Virus record (IMG/VR): IMGVR_UViG_3300035698_009252
Location: 64,001-128,000 of that record
Origin: a virus
Direction: 5' to 3' (one strand)
DNA: 64,000 nt
The translations under genes were made by a program, and so were the position numbers. Positions within the stretch are counted from its first letter, which is position 1. Each line of letters starts with the position of its first letter. A model generated the notes under the pieces. It was not told the origin of the DNA. It saw only the letters and a list, made by a program, of their open reading frames with translations, and did not search any database. Shown piece after piece: positions 27,160 through 57,566 of this stretch.

Positions 27160-28965
27160 CTACGCATTTACGGGCGTCTGTGCCGCCCAACCCTTACGAA
27201 TCTGCTCCACAGTGGGCAGAGCAACCTCGTCCTTATCTTCTGTCAGGCCCTCGGTTTGCGCAAGCATTCCGAACACCTTCTCGTTGAACCCGGCAAGCAG
27301 GTTCACGTGGGTGCCCTCGTCCACAATCGTGTCACCGTACCCATTCAGGTTGATGCAGTGCAGCCAAGTCTCCTTGGCCCCCTTACCCGATGCCACGTAC
27401 TTTGCCCAGGTGTCACACACAGCCTTCTCGCTGTTCGGGCTCTCCGAACGGTAGCCACGCGCACCCGTCATGCTGGTGTCATCCCACGCCTGGAGGTCGG
27501 ACAGGAGGATAACCCGGTCAGGAGTCAGCCCCTTCTCGATGAGCCACAGCGGAATCTTGAAGGCGTTGGTGTTGTGACCGTTCACGCCGTCATCCCCAAT
27601 CTTGCGGGCCACATCGAGCACTGTATCAGTCTTCGTCCACATAACCTCGCGGATATCCGTTGCGAAAGCGCACACGTAGGAACGCTCACACCCCTTGGCC
27701 ACGATACCGGTTAGCACGTTTGCCACGTCGGCCACCGTCACCTCGGACTTGTCCGACAGCCTGTTGTTCGACATGGACCTCGAAGCGTCCACGAAGATTG
27801 CCGTGGTACCCGGCAGGGAAACCCCCTCCGCTGCGTAGTTTACGGCCAGCTCGACAGCGGCTTCCAGCTCACCCCGGTCGGCCTGGTCCACACCATCAAC
27901 CTGGAGGGCCTTCGATGCGGACAGGAACCGGAACGGGAGCTGCTTGGACCGCTGCACGGCCTGCTTGCTGGAGATATACGCGGACACCTTAGCGATATGC
28001 TCTTGCGAGACCTTCGCCTGAAGGATGTTCCGCAGGTTCCGCAGCATGGCCATGTAGCCGAGCAGCTTCTCGTCAACGAGGAACTCCCAAACACCCTTCT
28101 TGTCGTCCCCGAACTGGGAAAGCAGAACCTCCCAGTTCACCTTGGACTTGCGAGCAAGTTCCTTGGTGATGTTATCGAAAGCCGTCCGCTTGTTCATGGC
28201 CGCACGTGCCGCCACAATCGGGGCGTCCTTCTCATCCGGGATTGCGCCTGTGATGAAGTAATTCGCGATGGGCTTCGCCACCGGCCAGTCGGCCTTGCGC
28301 TTCACCCACCCAAACACGTCCTTCCACGTCGGGAAGTCCGGGCTGTCATACTTCACCAACCCACGCTCTCCAAAGCCCGAGATGGCGTCCCCCAGGCCGA
28401 AGTTCAGGCCATTGGCCAGAGACTTCATGCCGAAGAAGAACCGGTGAACGAGCAGACACGTCTTAACCTCGTCCGGCCTCTTGACAATGTGCGGGGCGTA
28501 CCGACGCACAAGCGACTTGGTCGCATCGAGCCTGGACGCCACAACAAGGAGCACCTGCGGCGTGAGCCGGATGTACATCTCATTGCGGAGCCAGTTGGCG
28601 ATAGAGAGAAGGTCCTCCGGGTTGTCCCCGGTCCCCACATCGATAGCCGTTGCCACGACCTCGCGAGCCACGTCGTTGAGTTCCTCGCAGGAAGCAAAGC
28701 CATTCAGCTTGCCATCCACGATTTCGAGACGCCGAGCGAGTTGCTCGAACTTGCCGCCCTGCACCCTCTTCGGGACAATGGCGTCACCGTTATAGAACTT
28801 CGGCTCGGCGAAAAACGCCCCACCGGTCATGGTGACCAGCTTGAGTGCCGGGTCCTTAATCTCGAATGCGACGCCGCCTGCGCGGTTTACGGTTGCATTC
28901 GGCTGCTTGCTCGGCTTACGAGCGTTCGCGGACTTGGTCCGCGCCATCTTCTGAAGAGTACTCAT
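27160..28965 (-). CDS. TROVE-domain (Ro60/Rsr/TEP1-like) RNA-binding protein with C-terminal vWA domain
   Basis: NRAGGVAF start, YMAMLRNLRNI, SKQLPFRFLSA, MIDAS DASRSM, ILLSDLQ. SD AGGAGGAGG before MSTLQK. Confidence 0.9.
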   Translation of the reverse strand: MSTLQKMARTKSANARKPSKQPNATVNRAGGVAFEIKDPALKLVTMTGGAFFAEPKFYNGDAIVPKRVQGGKFEQLARRLEIVDGKLNGFASCEELNDVAREVVATAIDVGTGDNPEDLLSIANWLRNEMYIRLTPQVLLVVASRLDATKSLVRRYAPHIVKRPDEVKTCLLVHRFFFGMKSLANGLNFGLGDAISGFGERGLVKYDSPDFPTWKDVFGWVKRKADWPVAKPIANYFITGAIPDEKDAPIVAARAAMNKRTAFDNITKELARKSKVNWEVLLSQFGDDKKGVWEFLVDEKLLGYMAMLRNLRNILQAKVSQEHIAKVSAYISSKQAVQRSKQLPFRFLSASKALQVDGVDQADRGELEAAVELAVNYAAEGVSLPGTTAIFVDASRSMSNNRLSDKSEVTVADVANVLTGIVAKGCERSYVCAFATDIREVMWTKTDTVLDVARKIGDDGVNGHNTNAFKIPLWLIEKGLTPDRVILLSDLQAWDDTSMTGARGYRSESPNSEKAVCDTWAKYVASGKGAKETWLHCINLNGYGDTIVDEGTHVNLLAGFNEKVFGMLAQTEGLTEDKDEVALPTVEQIRKGWAAQTPVNA

Positions 28966-29031
28966 AGCGTACCTCCTCCTTCTTTGAAGCGTGCCCAACT
29001 GTAGGGCACCAATTTACATTTCCTGACAAAC

Positions 29032-29435: not shown

Positions 29436-29495
29436 TTCTATTTTCTGTTTCAATTCAAAGAACAAACGACTGAAGCGTACCAGCCATCACAAACA

Positions 29496-29789
29496 CTATA
29501 CACCCGGACTCTCGTCCGGCGCAACAGAATTTTCATTTTTTTCATCTTCGTCTGGAATCCCTAATGTATTCCGCAGATATTCCTCGATTTCGTTAACGGT
29601 TGTCAACCGGCCAACATCTCCATCGGGTACAGGCTTTCCAAATTCTTCCTCGAATATCACCAACAATTCCACACAGTCCAGCTCATCGGCACCAAGGCTT
29701 GTTACGAGATGTGCATCATCTTCAATACCTTCAACCGGAATTCCCAGTTGCTCGGCCACGATAGACTTGATTCTGTCGCGAATGCTCAT
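29496..29789 (-). CDS. Acyl carrier protein-like protein lacking the phosphopantetheine Ser
   Basis: RIKSIVAEQLG...SLGADELDCVELL...EEEFG...TTV matches ACP except DSLD is DELD. Confidence 0.85.
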   Translation of the reverse strand: MSIRDRIKSIVAEQLGIPVEGIEDDAHLVTSLGADELDCVELLVIFEEEFGKPVPDGDVGRLTTVNEIEEYLRNTLGIPDEDEKNENSVAPDESPGV

Positions 29790-30035: not shown

Positions 30036-30211
30036 TGGTGGAGCGTACAGGAATTGAACCTGCGTCGGTTCCAGCCCTCCCGCCAACTACAGTCAAACCT
30101 GCACCGAGGAAAAAAATAAACCTCTGATTGGTACAGGACTCACTGCTTGGTACGAGACTTCGGAATCCCAAGTGACTTTCGTCACCGGCCTTTCCTCTCA
30201 GCCAACGCCCC
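30036..30211 (-). ncRNA. tRNA-Ala-like RNA with ~115-nt insert replacing the anticodon arm
   Basis: Acceptor GGGGCGT/ACGCTCC with G3:U70, A73, encoded CCA, D-arm-like TGGCTGAGAGGAAAGGC, T arm GCAGG-TTCAATT-CCTGT. Confidence 0.7.
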
Positions 30212-30285
30212 TTTCTCAGACTCTTGGCCAGCCTTTCGGCTGTTACCAGTTGACACCGCGTGGAGGTGGTCTGACATCGTCAACC

Positions 30286-30677
30286 TGGACGTGGGGAGAA
30301 TCGAACTCCCGTCCTGGACAGGCTCACCGTAAACCTCTACATGCTTATCCAGCTACTTTCTTTTGCCGCTGGCGGGCCGCACAACAGTCCTTCCCAGAGC
30401 ACCCCGTAATAAACGGTTCTGTTGTAGTACTCATTGGATGACATAGCCCGGCCACCCGCCGGGGTTCTACCTCTGTCGTTGCCGGACATCCCTTAGAGGT
30501 GTAGGGGAGCCGACACCGGGGCTGTTAAGCCGCCAGAGCGCGAGCGCCCTGGACTCCGGGGAATTGAAGAACGTTGCCGTTTACTTCAGTGTTGGAAGGC
30601 TTTTTAGGAGGCCAACCTTACCAACCTCCGCATGCAGTTAACGACTTGCATCTGCCAGTCGAAACCTTGTCACGCCC
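30286..30677 (-). ncRNA. ssrA: tmRNA, tag (A)GNVLQFPGVQGARALAA* at 30525-30578
   Basis: 5' GGGCGTG-ACAAGGTTTCGAC, 3' GGAC-GGGAG-TTCGATT-CTCCC-CACGTCC-A, G3:U70, tag ORF ending ALAA. CCA not encoded. Confidence 0.92.
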
Positions 30678-30733
30678 ATATTTTCAAAGAACGACCGTAG
30701 CATTCACCGTCTACCGCTACGAGTCAACATCAA

Positions 30734-30778: not shown

Positions 30779-31232
30779 TTACTAGCAGGCCGGGTTTTCG
30801 CCGACACACTTACCTACCCCACCCTCCACGTAGAGCCATAACTTCAACGGGATAGGGTCATAGGCTTAAAGCTCAGTCCTAATCGTTTGCCCCACCTCCA
30901 ACCGGGAGGCTACGGGTTCTCTATTCCACCCAAGGAAGGCCATTTACATCTGCAAGACAGGCTTGCTCCTCTCTCGCGTCCGGGCTCTCACCGGCACCCC
31001 TGGACTTTGCAACCTACTTCTTTCGGTTCGGCGACCCGTTCGGATTCTAACCTACTAAGGGATTTTTGCGCACGGGGACTATTGGTGCGCGGGGTGTGTT
31101 ACGGCTCCAGCAACATCCAAGGTGTTCCGGTACCGGGTAGTCCGCAAGAAGGGGACAAGACCACATTCTCGCGCTTGCCTGGTGTGTCCGGGCTTGGATT
31201 CGCCTTCACCAGCGCCACACCGCTGCCAGTAA
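30779..31232 (-). ncRNA. Large (~450 nt) structured RNA of unknown class with tRNA-like ends
   Basis: 10-bp terminal stem TTACTGGCAG/CTGCTAGTAA, preceded at the 3' end by a 5-bp/7-nt-loop T-arm mimic GTCGG-CGAAAAC-CCGGC. No minus-strand ORF. Confidence 0.6.
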
Positions 31233-31247
31233 AATATCAATGAACAA

Positions 31248-31409
31248 ATCGAGCGACAGGGTTTTCACCTGCACGACGGGTATTTCATCTTTGCTTCAAG
31301 ACTGCGTTTCTTGATTTGGCTTTCGCTCGCCTCAAGGCATTCAGTCAACACCCCGTCTATTTCACCGCATCGCTGCTGGCAGTTTAGCGTCTAATTCCGC
31401 CACGCTCAA
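31248..31409 (-). ncRNA. tRNA-like RNA (~160 nt) with Leu-type D arm and large insert
   Basis: TTGAGCG/CGCTCGA acceptor, TGGCGGAATTAGACGC D arm, GCAGG-TGAAAAC-CCTGT T-arm variant. Confidence 0.6.
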
Positions 31410-32058
31410 AAACCAATGTTGCCTGCCCCGCCCTCACGTCCTCTTACTCTCGGACAGAGGCTTCAGCTTCGCCACGCACCGAGGTCCGGTAATCCGTGAC
31501 AGTAACCCGTCAGACAACAAATCAAAATCAAAGGGCAGGCTTGTTCGCCACAGTCCCAGAGCGGGCCGTTTAACTCCCGCTTTTCTTCCGGCATTGTTCC
31601 TTCTTCTGCAAGCAGAAGTTCACCGGGCCAATTGCAGACTAGCTGCTGGCCGATGCCGAAGCTGAGGCTGTACCTGCCATGAGGCACCGCCGAAGACGTG
31701 GCTGGTTTACGCATCCCAGCCGTAGCCCTGTTTTGCCTCCGCAAATGCGGAGATGGCTTCCCGGATTGTCTCCGGCATGGGGACGACGGTTTCCCGTCAA
31801 TCCTCCACCACCCGGATTTTTGATAAGGTTCCGGGGAACCGCATCGGAAAGGCCGCAACAGCACCCGAAGGCTGCCGTACGACGGTTCCCAACGAAAACG
31901 CCTTTGGGCCAGTCGCACCAGAGATTTGTGCCACACTGTTTTTTTTCTTGGCTCCCGGCGATAGTTCTTACCAACCGGCCCAAAGGTAAATCTTTCAAAG
32001 AACTGGCCTTGCGGCCTCGTCATCCCATTCATTGCGCAACTGGTTCGGGATTCTGAAC

Positions 32059-36370: not shown

Positions 36371-38761
36371 CTACTGCCGTCTACGGTCTATCGTATAGAT
36401 ATGGCACTGATTCATGTCGCTGCGACCCCAGAAAATGGTGTCACCCCGCCTTGCCACATTCCCGCCGAAGTCCCGCTGCCGGTCCTCCGCCGTCTCCCCG
36501 GTGATACTCCCCACATCGGTAAACTGGCTACCGTCATACGCCACCAGCTTGTCCGGGTCAGTTGCCGCGAAATAGACAAAGTGCTCGTCCGCCTTGGCAT
36601 CCTGGATACTCAATGTCCACGTGTCATGCAACACCTGCCAGTTACTACCGACCTTCTTGCTGATACGCCCGTCAGCCGCGAACCTCGACCCTGCCCCGGC
36701 ACCATGTCCCATGTACAGCTCATCCTGGAATACCACCAATTTCAATCCCGGAGATGGCTCGGTATGACCCGAGAACGTACCGTACACCTCGTCACCGAAG
36801 TTGGTCAGGTAATGATAATCATTCCCAAACTCAACGATGGACCGGACCAGTGCCTTAACCGGAAGTGTCAGGTAAACATGACCACTCCAGACATCAACCA
36901 CCTGTGGGTTCGTATGGAAGTTAGCCGGAGGCCGCAAGTCCCCACTGGAAGTGTATACCGGATGGCCTTGGTATACCGTCCCCGCCAAGTTCCACGGGTA
37001 CGGGCAACTATGGGCTTCCGTTAAGGCACCGTTCTCGTACACCAGGCACTTATTCCCGCCGTGCTCCGGGCAAAAGATAACCTGGTCATACCAAACAGTC
37101 GCAAGCTGCCACGTCTCTTCTGCGTCATACTTGTCATACAAGGTTTTGATGGGGCCAAAAGGAGGGTCCTCCCACATGAATATCTGGACATGCCACGGGT
37201 CCCGATAGACATTGCTGGTGCCCCAGAACAGGGCCTTGTACTTCTCGACGTACTCCATGAACGTAACCTTGTACGCATTGTCATCACTCGACCACACTTT
37301 CTTCGGGGACGAATGAACCCACTCACCCGTAGGAGGCGCATCTTCCGGGAAGTCAATCTGCTTCACCTCTAACTGTAAATCCCTCTTGTTGGCCGGAGCC
37401 TTCTCGTCATTGTCCACCAACCACATATTGACGTACAGATGCAGGTTGTCCTCTTCCGTCGGGATGTCGTCGCCCGTGTAGCTCCACTCGTCAATGACGT
37501 AATCGGAGGACGGAGGCTCGGCATAATGCCCATGGAACGACTTGAACGTAACCTTGTCGGGCTGCCATTCAATCACATGCGTCGTTGCCCCGCCATCCAA
37601 GTCCATCATCTTCTTGTGCTTGTGACCCGGCACGTCCCATGGCTGGACGCAATACTGGAGGTTGTATGACGCATTCTTCTTGCCCCAACGTGAGGCTTCG
37701 ATGTCAACTTCCTTGTCATCATCCGCCCACAGGAACATGCCCAGAACGATGTTCCGGTCGATATCGTCCAAGGATGGATTCGAGCAGTTGACGTAGAATC
37801 GGTACGTGCCGTACTTGGCCACGTCAACACACTTGGCTTCACCACACAACCACTTGCAGTTATCCTGCCGAATCTTCATATACAGACGGTTGGCATGGAT
37901 ATCCGCGTTGTATGGATGCCACCAGTTGCTCCCCGGCGCATATCTCTGCCCGTCCTGCTTGATGTCCCATTGACGGCCCATGAATGTCTGCGGGCTGCGC
38001 TTGTACATGGGGGACGTGGGTTCCGGCTGCGGGTCCGGGTCGGGCTGGGGGTCTGGGTCCGGCTGCTGTGGAGAGTCCGGGTCAACCAATTGAATGATAT
38101 TCGAGCGTTCCTGTACGCTCGTGACTCCTACCCGGTTATGGCCGCACACGCACAGCCAGACCTTGTCCGTCGTGCGATAAGCATAGTTCTCCCATGCGCC
38201 GGTAAAGATTTTCTTGTTGCCACGGTCACTCTTGAGAATCTTCTTCGCCTGAGTGTGCTGTCCTTGGAGCAACCATTCCGTCCACATCTGCGACTTCTGG
38301 CCATCCCGCTCCACGAATATCATAATGCTGCCATTCGGGTCGTTATGAATCTTGTCAGTCTTCGGCCATCTATCAGGATGGGAACCTTCCCATGACACGG
38401 TAGCGCCACCAATCTTGCCATTGCTGATATGACAAGTGATTGGCCAATTGTCTACACGGGCATCGCCACCATTCAGGGCGAAGCCAGCCGGGTTGATTGC
38501 GTCCAAAGACGGTTCGGGCTCAGGCTCTGGGTCCGGGTCTGGGTCCGGCTCTGGTTCTGGTTCTGGCTCCGGGTCCGGCTCTGGTTCTGGCTCTGGCTCC
38601 GGGTCCGGCTCTGGCTCTGGCTCTGGCTCCGGCTCCGGCTCTGGCTCTGGCTCTGGCTCCGGCTCCGGCTCTGGCTCAGGTTCTGGCTCTGGGTCCGGGT
38701 TATTGGGCTTCTTACCGCGTAAGAAATCAATTATCGACTGAAAGAAATCTGACAATGACAT
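36371..38761 (-). CDS. Multidomain protein: Pro-Glu linker, GH16-like glycoside hydrolase, C-terminal beta-propeller-like region
   Basis: [10 protein letters not shown] (GH16 ExDxE), [16 protein letters not shown]. Confidence 0.75.
38510..38700. repeat. Hexanucleotide repeat encoding (PE/PD)n
   Basis: About 30 consecutive Pro-Glu/Pro-Asp dipeptides. Confidence 0.9.
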
Positions 38762-55556: not shown

Positions 55557-55819
55557 TCACCTCCTTCAAATTGCTGCATGGCTTTTACGATGTCGGCCAA
55601 ATACGGCGCAACACCTTCGTCTAACGATTCCCTGGCGGAATCCAGTGCCGCCTTCTGAGGAACACTCTCTGCCTTGATTTTCGGCAAATTCTCGTTGATG
55701 ATTTGTACGCAGCGAATCATCATATCGATGGACTGGTCGACCATCTCCAAGGGCTCATCGCTCTCTTCTCCTTGTGCGACCCTGTTTGTCATTTTGGCTA
55801 TCCTCGTTTGGTCCATCAC
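55553..55819 (-). CDS. Short-leader protein (MDQTRIAKMTNRVA)
   Basis: Leader variant. Confidence 0.6.
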   Translation of the reverse strand: MMDQTRIAKMTNRVAQGEESDEPLEMVDQSIDMMIRCVQIINENLPKIKAESVPQKAALDSARESLDEGVAPYLADIVKAMQQFEGGE

Positions 55820-57291
55820 GCATACTCCTCTTTGAGAAGGCGGATGGCATCCTGCCTGGACAACTCCTTGCCCAACCCCGCCAATTCGTCCATCTTGTCC
55901 CGCAGAAATTGAATGGCTTTGCCCACTTCCGGTCCCTGACCTAACCCCAAAATCTGCTGTACCTCGTGCCCATTCAACGGTGGTTTCTCCGATATCGGGA
56001 TGTCCTGAACGTCCTCAATCATTTCGCGAAGCTTCGGAATTTCGTTCCGAGGCGGCAGATTCCCCAACAAATCAGCTTCGGCCAAGTCCAGCACGGCGTC
56101 AATCAACTCCTCACCCACATTGCGAATGAACTTCCGCAAAGCCTTCGGCCCCACCCTGTCGTCACGGGTCATGGCGTGTGGACGCATGTGCATCTCCACC
56201 ATGCGCCTGACAGACTTGATGTCCTTCTTCTCAAACTTCAACCGCCGCATGATGGCTTCGGCAATTTCCCCACCAACCTTTTCATGGCCAATGAACCGGA
56301 CCAGGCCGTCAAGAATCTCCCTGGACTTCGGCTTGCCCACGTCATGTAACAGGGCACCTAGCTGGTTTAGAACGCCTGGCTGGGCACTCCGCAACACCAG
56401 CATGGTGTGTTTGAAGACATCGCCCTCCTGGTGAGCACCACGGGTGTATTCATGTTCCACGCCCTGCATTGCCTCTATTTCCGGGAAGACGTACTTCAAC
56501 AACCCTAATACCTTCATCAACCGGATAGCCTGGGCCAGCTTGCCCACATCCATCACTTTGATAAGTTCATCTCGGATACGTTCCCCTGAGACAATCTTGA
56601 TACGGCCCGCATTCGCCCGCACAATCTTGATAACCGATATAGGAACCTTCCACCCATACTTAGCCTGGAAGCGAACCAGGCGAATCATCCTGAGAGGGTC
56701 TTGCCGGAGAATCTCGGCAAAGTCTACGCCCGGATGGCCCCGCAAGAGTCCCTTCTTGATGTCGGCCACGCTGGTCCCGGTCAAATCCTTCAGCTCGCCG
56801 GTTGTCAAATCCTTCAGGACCATGTTGACGGTAAAATCTCGGCGCTCGATATCTTCTTTCAGGGTGCCAGGCTCAGTTAGCCGCTGCCGGGAGTCCTCAT
56901 CAGGAAATGATTCCTTCTGAGCATCGGCAATCTCAATCTCCGCACCTGCGGTTGCGTACTCTTCGCCATCGAACTCTATATCGTCCTTGAAGGTGATAGC
57001 CCATATGGGGTACTTCCCTTTCTGGACTGGGCGGCTTGTCTCCCTCGTGAACTCGCGATGGAGATAGGTAGTGAGCTTCTTCGCTCCACCCTTCATCTCG
57101 ATGACAACGTCCAGGTCCTTGGACGGCAATCCCATGATTTCGTCACGAACGTATCCGCCCACCGCGAAGGTCTTATTGGCAAAGGGGGTGCCCCGCAGTA
57201 ACGCCTTCATCAGACGTTCCACTTCTTTCTCGGCGGATGCCGCCAAGATTTCGCGAGCTACCTTGAGCACTTCTTTGACCAATCCGTTCAT
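55816..57291 (-). CDS. cca: CCA-adding tRNA nucleotidyltransferase (class II) with HD domain, leader-tagged
   Basis: VGGYVRD..DLD, EDIERRDFTVN, DPLRMIR, ERIRDEL, HT..LLHDVGKP. Start MNGLVKEVLKVAREILAA. Confidence 0.88.
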   Translation of the reverse strand: MNGLVKEVLKVAREILAASAEKEVERLMKALLRGTPFANKTFAVGGYVRDEIMGLPSKDLDVVIEMKGGAKKLTTYLHREFTRETSRPVQKGKYPIWAITFKDDIEFDGEEYATAGAEIEIADAQKESFPDEDSRQRLTEPGTLKEDIERRDFTVNMVLKDLTTGELKDLTGTSVADIKKGLLRGHPGVDFAEILRQDPLRMIRLVRFQAKYGWKVPISVIKIVRANAGRIKIVSGERIRDELIKVMDVGKLAQAIRLMKVLGLLKYVFPEIEAMQGVEHEYTRGAHQEGDVFKHTMLVLRSAQPGVLNQLGALLHDVGKPKSREILDGLVRFIGHEKVGGEIAEAIMRRLKFEKKDIKSVRRMVEMHMRPHAMTRDDRVGPKALRKFIRNVGEELIDAVLDLAEADLLGNLPPRNEIPKLREMIEDVQDIPISEKPPLNGHEVQQILGLGQGPEVGKAIQFLRDKMDELAGLGKELSRQDAIRLLKEEYA

Positions 57292-57293
57292 AA

Positions 57294-57566
57294 TTACGGC
57301 AGAACATCTGCTGTTCTCTCCAGCTCCCAAGCCTCTTTCTCAAGGCTTGCCGCCACCTGCCCGCACAGTGATTCAAGATGTTTGTATGCCGACACCGCGC
57401 TATGGCAATCAGACGCCAACTCGTTAAGCATCAAGGAGTCGCCCGCCTCGTTCTTCGCGTCACGATACGTATTGAACCCCGCCGCCTTCATCACCCTTGC
57501 ACGCTCACGCTCCCGAGCAAGTACCGTGTCGAATGCCTTCCTGAACTGTCTATCAAACGTCGCCAT
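57294..57566 (-). CDS. Hypothetical protein
   Basis: 90 aa, SD GAGGTG. Confidence 0.6.
   Translation of the reverse strand: MATFDRQFRKAFDTVLARERERARVMKAAGFNTYRDAKNEAGDSLMLNELASDCHSAVSAYKHLESLCGQVAASLEKEAWELERTADVLP

Follow-up and report, generated by a model that had tools for sequence, protein, structure and literature searches.

The systems that come closest to the one described here are the theta ribozymes of gut Caudoviricetes (Kienbeck et al. 2024, PMC10879173), which lie behind phage tRNAs of which few have an encoded CCA tail, with the CCA enzyme enriched 250-fold; transfer-messenger RNA (tmRNA) is not mentioned in that work. Over-long tRNA-shaped genes are known from the Lak megaphages, where they have been described as tRNAs with 'enigmatic introns' (Devoto et al. 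2019, PMC6784885), and non-decoding RNAs that mimic the tRNA elbow are known as the YrlA-type Y RNAs (Chen et al. 2014, PMC4201824). The element considered here, a 176-nucleotide (nt) RNA gene in a 64,000-nt stretch of virus DNA (the window, bases 64001-128000 of the 139.6-kb IMG/VR virus record IMGVR_UViG_3300035698_009252), has something in common with each of these and differs from each. With a probability of about one half it is a phage-encoded, non-decoding mimic of tRNA-Ala, carried as an accessory cassette and acting in trans as a decoy or adaptor. The record is rated ~43% complete by CheckV and the virus is therefore a very large phage; identical DNA is present in public salt-lake metagenome runs.

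The acceptor stem of the RNA is of 7 base pairs (bp) (GGGGCGU/ACGCUCC) with G3:U70 and G2:C71, and is followed at the 3' end by A73 and an encoded CCA, the T arm is GCAGG-UUCAAUU-CCUGU, and the D arm keeps A14, G15 and the D-loop GG. A first-pass annotation, made from the letters of the window, had already pointed to G3:U70, A73, the encoded CCA and a canonical T loop, all of which are in the sequence. The bases that make tertiary contacts in tRNA are all kept (U8, A14, G15/C48, G18G19, G53-C61 and the T loop UUCAA), and when set against a canonical decoding tRNA the RNA departs in the anticodon arm, which has neither the 7-nt loop with U33 nor a 3-nt anticodon. This arm had been thought to be replaced by an insert; it is in fact present, with a 5-bp stem GGUGA/UCACU and a 6-nt loop CGAAAG that has no U33 and the C and G of which can pair, closing a GAAA tetraloop of the GNRA type. 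The insert is a hairpin of 102 nt with the tip GAGG-UUUAUUUUUUU-CCUC and sits in the variable loop. Deletion of nt 44-145 leaves a flawless class-I cloverleaf of 74 nt, as drawn by ARAGORN, with a 5-nt variable loop in which UG is joined to GAC, and this GAC, earlier likened to that of tmRNA, is the 3' part of the variable loop with its C at the C48 position facing G15.

The same assignment is made by covariance model R1, which aligns the hairpin with the anticodon arm of the tRNA-Mets of the window and of two related loci, L011 and L009, with the insert falling in the variable region. The related loci (L numbers) belong to a set of 32 Ro60-homologue loci (28-78% identity) taken from IMG/VR and JGI metagenomes. 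The whole RNA folds with a minimum free energy (MFE) of -71 kcal/mol as against -57 +/- 4 for shuffled sequences (z = -3.4, equalled by 0/200 shuffles), and the long arm together with the T arm (nt 44-168) at -46.7 kcal/mol (z = -3.2, again 0/200). Two of the three hairpins that had been proposed within the insert are found in the RNA, GUGAC-GAAA-GUCAC and CCUGUACC/GGUGCAGG, whilst the third, CUUGG/CCAAG, is an alternative local pairing, with CCAAG paired lower on the arm in the MFE fold. The element is covered neither by a call of ARAGORN at default settings nor by any of the Rfam matches listed, those of the tRNA model included, and it is the sole match to a strict pattern of acceptor, T arm and CCA on both strands of the 139.6-kb record, a pattern that misses the initiator tRNA (1:72 mismatch) and the tmRNA (CCA missing). 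Two first impressions were dropped: the D arm had looked like that of a class-II tRNA (Ser/Leu/Tyr), and phage tRNAs of class I were found to have that same D arm; the arm strings UCCGAAG, AGUGAGU and UUGACU resemble metazoan Y-RNA motifs, and their pairing here differs. With such an anticodon arm the RNA would be unable to read a codon.

The set of tRNA-Ala identity elements, G3:U70, A73, G2:C71 and the CCA end, is complete in the sequence, and there is independent evidence of where it came from. The 3' 25 nt, used as a query with three degenerate positions against one genome each of ~185,000 prokaryote species, matched nine genes, every one of them a tRNA-Ala gene that starts with the same 5' GGGGCGUU as the 176-nt RNA. 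The best matches agree at 27/28 nt over T arm, acceptor strand, A73 and CCA, and are tRNA-Ala(GGC) genes of several metagenome-assembled genomes of Verrucomicrobiota. Because all nine matches are tRNA-Ala the alanine identity is firmer than the first-pass annotation, which had proposed it, could know, and as judged from these matches the RNA is derived from tRNA-Ala. It is known that alanyl-tRNA synthetase (AlaRS) requires G3:U70 and A73 alone, and that the affinity of EF-Tu is tuned by the T stem; the 176-nt RNA is probably chargeable with alanine.

Compared with a bacterial tRNA-Ala, the acceptor of 7 bp, A73 and CCA are identical and so is the T arm except for one loop base, the D arm and the tertiary-contact bases are normal, and the variable loop is one of 5 nt once the insert is taken away. 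What differs is the 6-nt loop that can be closed as a GNRA cap, the missing anticodon, the 102-nt hairpin in the variable loop and the sequence of the D arm, which is Gln/Cys-like. This type of D arm (GCCAAGAGGAAAGGC) is shared with ordinary tRNAs of phages, those being tRNAs for Gln, Met, Cys and Thr. In the literature no published phage tRNA-shaped RNA was found that combines a capped anticodon stem with free CCA ends, and the three bacterial tRNA-mimic families of a 2026 preprint have a different connectivity.

The element belongs to a minus-strand array of RNA genes, situated upstream of a Ro60/TROVE gene (Table 1). Along the direction of transcription the order is tmRNA, HDV-like (hepatitis delta virus-like) ribozyme, 176-nt element, a gene like that of acyl carrier protein (ACP), Y-like RNA, tRNA-Met and a strong terminator. 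Thus the element is not directly downstream of the tmRNA, as had been stated, the ribozyme and a 5-nt spacer between them having been missed; the spacer fills the stretch between helix P2 of the ribozyme, which ends at 30217, and G1 of the tRNA-like RNA.

Table 1. Positions in the window of the 176-nt element, its parts and the genes discussed with it
Feature	Position	Strand	Basis or remark
Phage tmRNA	30286..30677	-	Rfam RF00023, 105.9 bits, full length
HDV-like ribozyme (theta-type, minimal P4), 71 nt	30215..30285	-	RF02682 match, structure and covariation
5-nt spacer AGAAA (30216-30212), part outside the ribozyme	30212..30214	-	Sequence
Putative tRNA-Ala-derived, non-decoding tRNA mimic of 176 nt, whole element	30036..30211	-	Sequence, fold, tRNA-Ala gene matches
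Acceptor 5' strand GGGGCGU, then U8, then D arm GGCU-GAGAGGAAA-GGCC	30211-30205 (acceptor strand); 30203-30187 (D arm)	-	
Anticodon-position hairpin GGUGAC-GAAA-GUCACU	30171..30186	-	
102-nt irregular hairpin (nt 44-145 of the RNA), ~40 pairs	30067..30168	-	Variable-loop insertion
Variable-loop 3' part GAC, T arm, ACGCUCC, A73, CCA, then UUUUU	30036..30066	-	
ACP-like gene	29496-29789	-	Small PP-binding gene
Initiator-type tRNA-Met	29146-29070	-	
Ro60/TROVE gene	27160-28998		~1 kb downstream of the 176-nt RNA, along with Y-like RNAs
CCA-adding enzyme	55816..57330	-	PolyA_pol head, RNA-binding and HD domains, tRNA_NucTran2_2

The tmRNA has the acceptor GGGCGUG/CACGUCC with G3:U70 and a tag frame that ends ...ARALAA-stop, and its gene stops at the discriminator A (30286) with no encoded CCA. 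Among the relatives the CCA is encoded in ten distinct tmRNA 3' ends (L002, L003, L004, L006/L007, L011, L016, L020, L023, L028 and L031), the sole exception being L029. The ribozyme behind it scores 37.8 bits with RF02682, which is under the gathering score of 44 (E = 3e-5 for 1 kb, 0.002 for the window), and its identity as an HDV-like ribozyme is supported by structure and covariation instead of by the curated cut-off. The nested double pseudoknot P1/P1.1/P2/P3/P4 is complete, with P1 GGUUGAC/GUCAACU including the G1.U pair, P2 CAGAC/GUCUG, P3 ACC/GGU, P1.1 CC/GG and P4 AGCC-GAAA-GGCU, and the catalytic C lies within GGC-CAAGA (J4/2). Its G1 is 30285, and the predicted cut A30286/G30285 is exactly the tmRNA 3' end.

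Ribozymes of the same subtype lie directly after a CCA-less tmRNA in L029 (1-166) and directly after a CCA-less tRNA-Met in L023 (1247-1389), both of them again scoring under the Rfam gathering score and both covarying with the copy in the window. When the three are aligned P1, P2, P3 and P1.1 are 100% paired, with five pairs altered on both sides, the G1.U and the catalytic C are invariant, and sliding the partners abolishes pairing. Salt-lake contigs provide two more compensatory changes in P1, and at least one salt-lake contig has a similar ribozyme behind an apparent tRNA 3' end. In the CCA enzyme of E. coli the HD domain acts as a 2',3'-cyclic phosphodiesterase, and the same activity in the HD domain of the phage CCA-adding enzyme would clear the end made by the ribozyme, with it being plausible that this enzyme then finishes the ribozyme-cut tmRNA. 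The unit is the same as those of the gut phages (PMC10879173) in that a minimal HDV-like ribozyme abuts a tRNA-type 3' end without CCA and a CCA enzyme is encoded, and differs in that the RNA predicted to be trimmed is a tmRNA, that the habitat is a salt lake and that a mimic with its own encoded CCA is found downstream of the ribozyme. Ribozyme matches of another family, Twister-P5, are present in the RNA arrays of L004 (3460-3536, 38.0 bits) and L006 (2182-2270, 48.6 bits; gathering score 37.6). Within L004 (4420-4875, the same in L005) the T loop of the tmRNA is interrupted, reading GGGAGTTCAATCC, about 430 nt and then TCTCCCCGCGTCCACCA, which to judge from the sequence resembles the intron-bearing form already known for tmRNA genes (PMC11915505), in this case from a phage.

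A conserved motif, GTTCTTTGA, precedes the tmRNA by 5-8 nt in the window and in L003, L004 and L006 and lies likewise upstream of the Y-like RNAs, the sites in the window being 30684-30692 and about 29447-29455 on the minus strand. It may be a promoter element of the -7 type or a processing signal, and we take it to resemble the TAnnTTTG box of Bacteroidota. As no motif of this kind is found upstream of the 176-nt element, we infer that the element is co-transcribed with the tmRNA.

The relatives that have enough upstream DNA share the layout tmRNA, ACP-like gene, Y-like RNA and tRNA-Met. No homologue of the 176-nt RNA was found with nhmmer in six Ro60-linked viral loci or with model R1 in the 32 Ro60-linked loci and five whole relative records, where the model scored only ordinary tRNAs, the 3' parts of tmRNAs and one further mimic, in L009. 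The 102-nt arm is absent from the Ro60-linked loci checked. A blastn search of 50,697 GenBank phages returned generic tRNA 3' ends only. Pattern scans of IMG/VR gave no match for the hairpin junction, one chance match for the D arm and no match for the ribozyme core, and patterns of D loop plus T loop found six normal tRNAs with a short gap and, with a long gap, either normal tRNAs next to each other or a single tRNA downstream. Salt-lake DNA contigs that cover the element are identical copies only, and a 38-nt stretch of it matched one short salt-lake contig with 7 differences. As close relatives are without it, the element is an accessory cassette, which only one phage population is known to carry.

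The closest informative relative, L029, the Ro60 protein of which is 77% identical, can be aligned by eye at ~85-90% through the 3' part of the tmRNA and the ribozyme, with the similarity ending just past the ribozyme and 241 nt remaining before the ACP-like gene where the window has 425 nt. The mimic must therefore be dispensable for maturation of the tmRNA, as L029 keeps the unit of tmRNA and ribozyme without it. The closest relative is L009 (Ro60 78% identical), which at 287-372, between tRNA-Met and the Ro60 gene and thus at a different position in the array, has an 86-nt tRNA-shaped RNA with a 6-bp acceptor, a D arm and loop like those of the 176-nt RNA, a UUCG-capped anticodon arm, a T arm of canonical form and ACCA. 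Default ARAGORN makes no call on this RNA, to which model R1 gives 28 bits, and as a second mimic of the clade it counts in favour of the mimic reading.

How such an RNA may be made and used can be put forward as a series of steps. The 176-nt RNA, having no promoter-like motif of its own, would be transcribed together with the tmRNA and form the 3' part of that transcript, and the ribozyme is predicted from its covarying structure to cut at A30286/G30285 and so come off the tmRNA, which would be given its CCA by the phage HD-domain enzyme. A cut by RNase P at 30212/30211, expected from the geometry of acceptor and T arm, would then free the mimic with its encoded CCA. The host AlaRS would charge it, as the enzyme asks for no more than is present, and EF-Tu would bind it, as the T stem is that of a true tRNA-Ala. 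Most likely the mimic would be a tRNA-shaped handle, offered in trans to machinery that binds tRNA ends or the elbow, with AlaRS, EF-Tu, the CCA enzyme and host factors that attack tRNA ends as candidate partners, and would thus be a decoy or an adaptor and not a translator, with the 102-nt arm as its payload or tether.

Several observations weigh against this. The element is a singleton for which no homologue or sequence variation was found, hence the mimic has no support from covariation, and L029 has the tmRNA-ribozyme unit without it. The RNA of L009 has C3:G70, and charging with alanine is therefore not common to the mimics of this clade. No RNA run is among the public runs listed as containing the element, and no target or partner of the 102-nt arm has been identified.

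The alternative that survives best, although it is unlikely, is that of a dead tRNA-Ala gene, in which one base of the anticodon loop was lost, the 102-nt insertion was gained and the product is functionless. Absence from 32 syntenic relatives and the inability to decode are what would be expected of such a gene, and phage tRNA pseudogenes have been annotated, for example 'tRNA-Pseudo-2' of KVP40. Decay would not, however, be expected to leave all stems perfectly paired and every base of the tertiary contacts in place, nor is the change in the loop like random damage, as it yields a stable GNRA cap closed by C-G. The CCA is also retained and the insert is strongly structured; its single copy in the 139.6-kb record rules out a repeated mobile element.

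It is somewhat less likely again that the element serves in cis, as a module for processing or stability in which the tRNA shape merely offers RNase P a site and nucleases a resistant block, keeping the ribozyme apart from the ACP-like mRNA, in the way of tRNA punctuation or mascRNA. The position between ribozyme and ACP-like gene in one transcription unit, with no motif of its own, would suit such a role, and punctuation by tRNA-like RNAs is an established principle (for mascRNA see PMC11693755). Against this, both L029 and L011 do without the 176-nt RNA, and a bare RNase P site needs neither the exact identity elements of tRNA-Ala nor an arm of 102 nt.

In jakobid mitochondria there are reduced tmRNAs that lack the mRNA-like part, and it could be proposed that the 176-nt RNA is likewise a mini-tmRNA without a tag, which once charged with alanine enters stalled ribosomes or titrates SmpB. 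This is close to what the first-pass annotation had in mind and is improbable. Alanine identity without an anticodon is common to the mimic and to tmRNA's tRNA-like domain, the mimic gene stands beside a true tmRNA with which it is probably co-transcribed, and the long helix leaves the core at the position of a class-II variable arm, as helix H2 of tmRNA does (PMC3968760); reduced forms are described from the jakobids (PMC3590771). The remainder of the RNA is that of a tRNA and not of a tmRNA, for it has a normal D arm with a stem of 4 bp in place of the reduced, stem-less D loop by which the tRNA-like domain is defined, together with a stem of the anticodon type, and in tmRNA it is SmpB that replaces both (PMC3968760). 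As these two stems sit where SmpB binds tmRNA, the titration of SmpB that had been suggested is without structural basis. No match to covariance models of tmRNA or permuted tmRNA is listed at E up to 10, there are no pseudoknots, and there is no tag frame with a plausibly placed stop, the frame of the GCA at nt 111 running out of the 3' end and the only closed frame seen by eye, within the long helix, ending ...SSVQV; in this, and in the want of a decoding anticodon, the first-pass annotation was right. An SmpB gene was not found in the 139.6 kb, nor were genes for a DRB0094-type RNA ligase, reverse transcriptase, AlaRS, FemAB or RtcB, blanks that weigh little in a record of such completeness.

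A variant of this proposal, slightly more improbable than the last, would make the mimic an all-RNA analogue, independent of SmpB, of tmRNA's tRNA-like domain with SmpB bound. The capped anticodon stem would stand in for SmpB and the arm would follow the path of H2, with EF-Tu delivering the alanyl-RNA to ribosomes with an empty A site, where its effect would be either to terminate stalled chains with one alanine or to block the trans-translation of the host in favour of the phage tmRNA from the same transcript.

That the insert is an intron, removed to give a decoding tRNA in the manner of the intron-bearing phage tRNAs reported from Lak phages (PMC6784885), is very improbable. The mimic shares with these that it is an over-long tRNA-shaped gene of a very large phage missed by standard bacterial tRNA finders, but the Lak tRNAs can be typed after removal of the insert and the 176-nt RNA cannot. 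Splicing to a normal tRNA was one outcome that the first-pass annotation had set against its own proposal, and in an exhaustive in silico series of single excisions there is none from which a fully paired stem of 5 bp and a 7-nt loop containing U33 result, even with G-U allowed freely. ARAGORN, one of the checks it had recommended, makes no call by default and with its intron option calls a tRNA-Ser(UGA) with an 83-nt intron, a model in which the anticodon stem has a mismatch and the variable arm is unpaired. In a control 671/1,914 arbitrary single deletions were also called as tRNAs, of many identities, and the call is therefore due to no more than the strength of the acceptor, D and T arms. 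Nor does the insert match any ribozyme or intron family at E up to 10.

In the known YrlA RNAs the Ro60 stem is at the free ends and the acceptor is closed. That the RNA tethers the neighbouring Ro60 protein in the manner of a Y RNA, with a tRNA as its frame, is also very improbable, for although Y-like RNAs and the Ro60/TROVE gene are found 1 kb downstream and YrlA-type RNAs (PMC4201824) are likewise non-decoding elbow mimics near a Ro60 gene, the 176-nt RNA has the reverse topology with free acceptor ends and CCA, a capped anticodon stem, no match listed with the YrlA model (RF02553) at E up to 10, and none of the CUUCAGU...GGUUACUUC motif by which the local Y-like RNAs would bind Ro60.

A few other features of the locus and the window are noted here. 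The ACP-like PP-binding gene is kept between tmRNA and Y-like RNA in all relatives that are long enough (L002:5012-5253, L011:1845-2074 and L029:405-630 are examples), and the protein of the window has LGADELD at the site of the serine that is modified in carrier proteins. Upstream of the tmRNA is a GC-rich region of ~600 nt without genes (30790-31410, minus strand), in which Rfam finds nothing up to E = 1, and at the same place the relatives have non-coding DNA with strings like GGUGGAG...GGGGAAAC...CGCCCC. That RNAs of this region might also be framed as tRNAs found no confirmation in a scan for acceptor and T arm. The 96-nt 'tRNA-Leu(CAG)' that ARAGORN calls at 38486-38581 (plus strand) consists of a repeat of the GGCTCT/GGGTCC type, is not matched by the Rfam tRNA model and is probably a false positive.

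Even apart from the mimic, the locus provides a case in which an HDV-like ribozyme is predicted to trim a tmRNA, backed by a CCA-adding enzyme of the phage, and the published scheme of tRNA maturation by theta ribozymes is thereby extended to tmRNA and to a habitat other than the gut. Should the 176-nt RNA prove to be made and charged, it would be an instance in nature of a virus that has kept the processing, aminoacylation and carriage by EF-Tu of a tRNA and has deliberately removed decoding. The loss of decoding with the other functions of tRNA kept is the step that is thought to be intermediate between tRNA-Ala and tmRNA, and the mimic would in that event be a compact object with which to probe what aminoacylated, non-decoding tRNAs do in infection.

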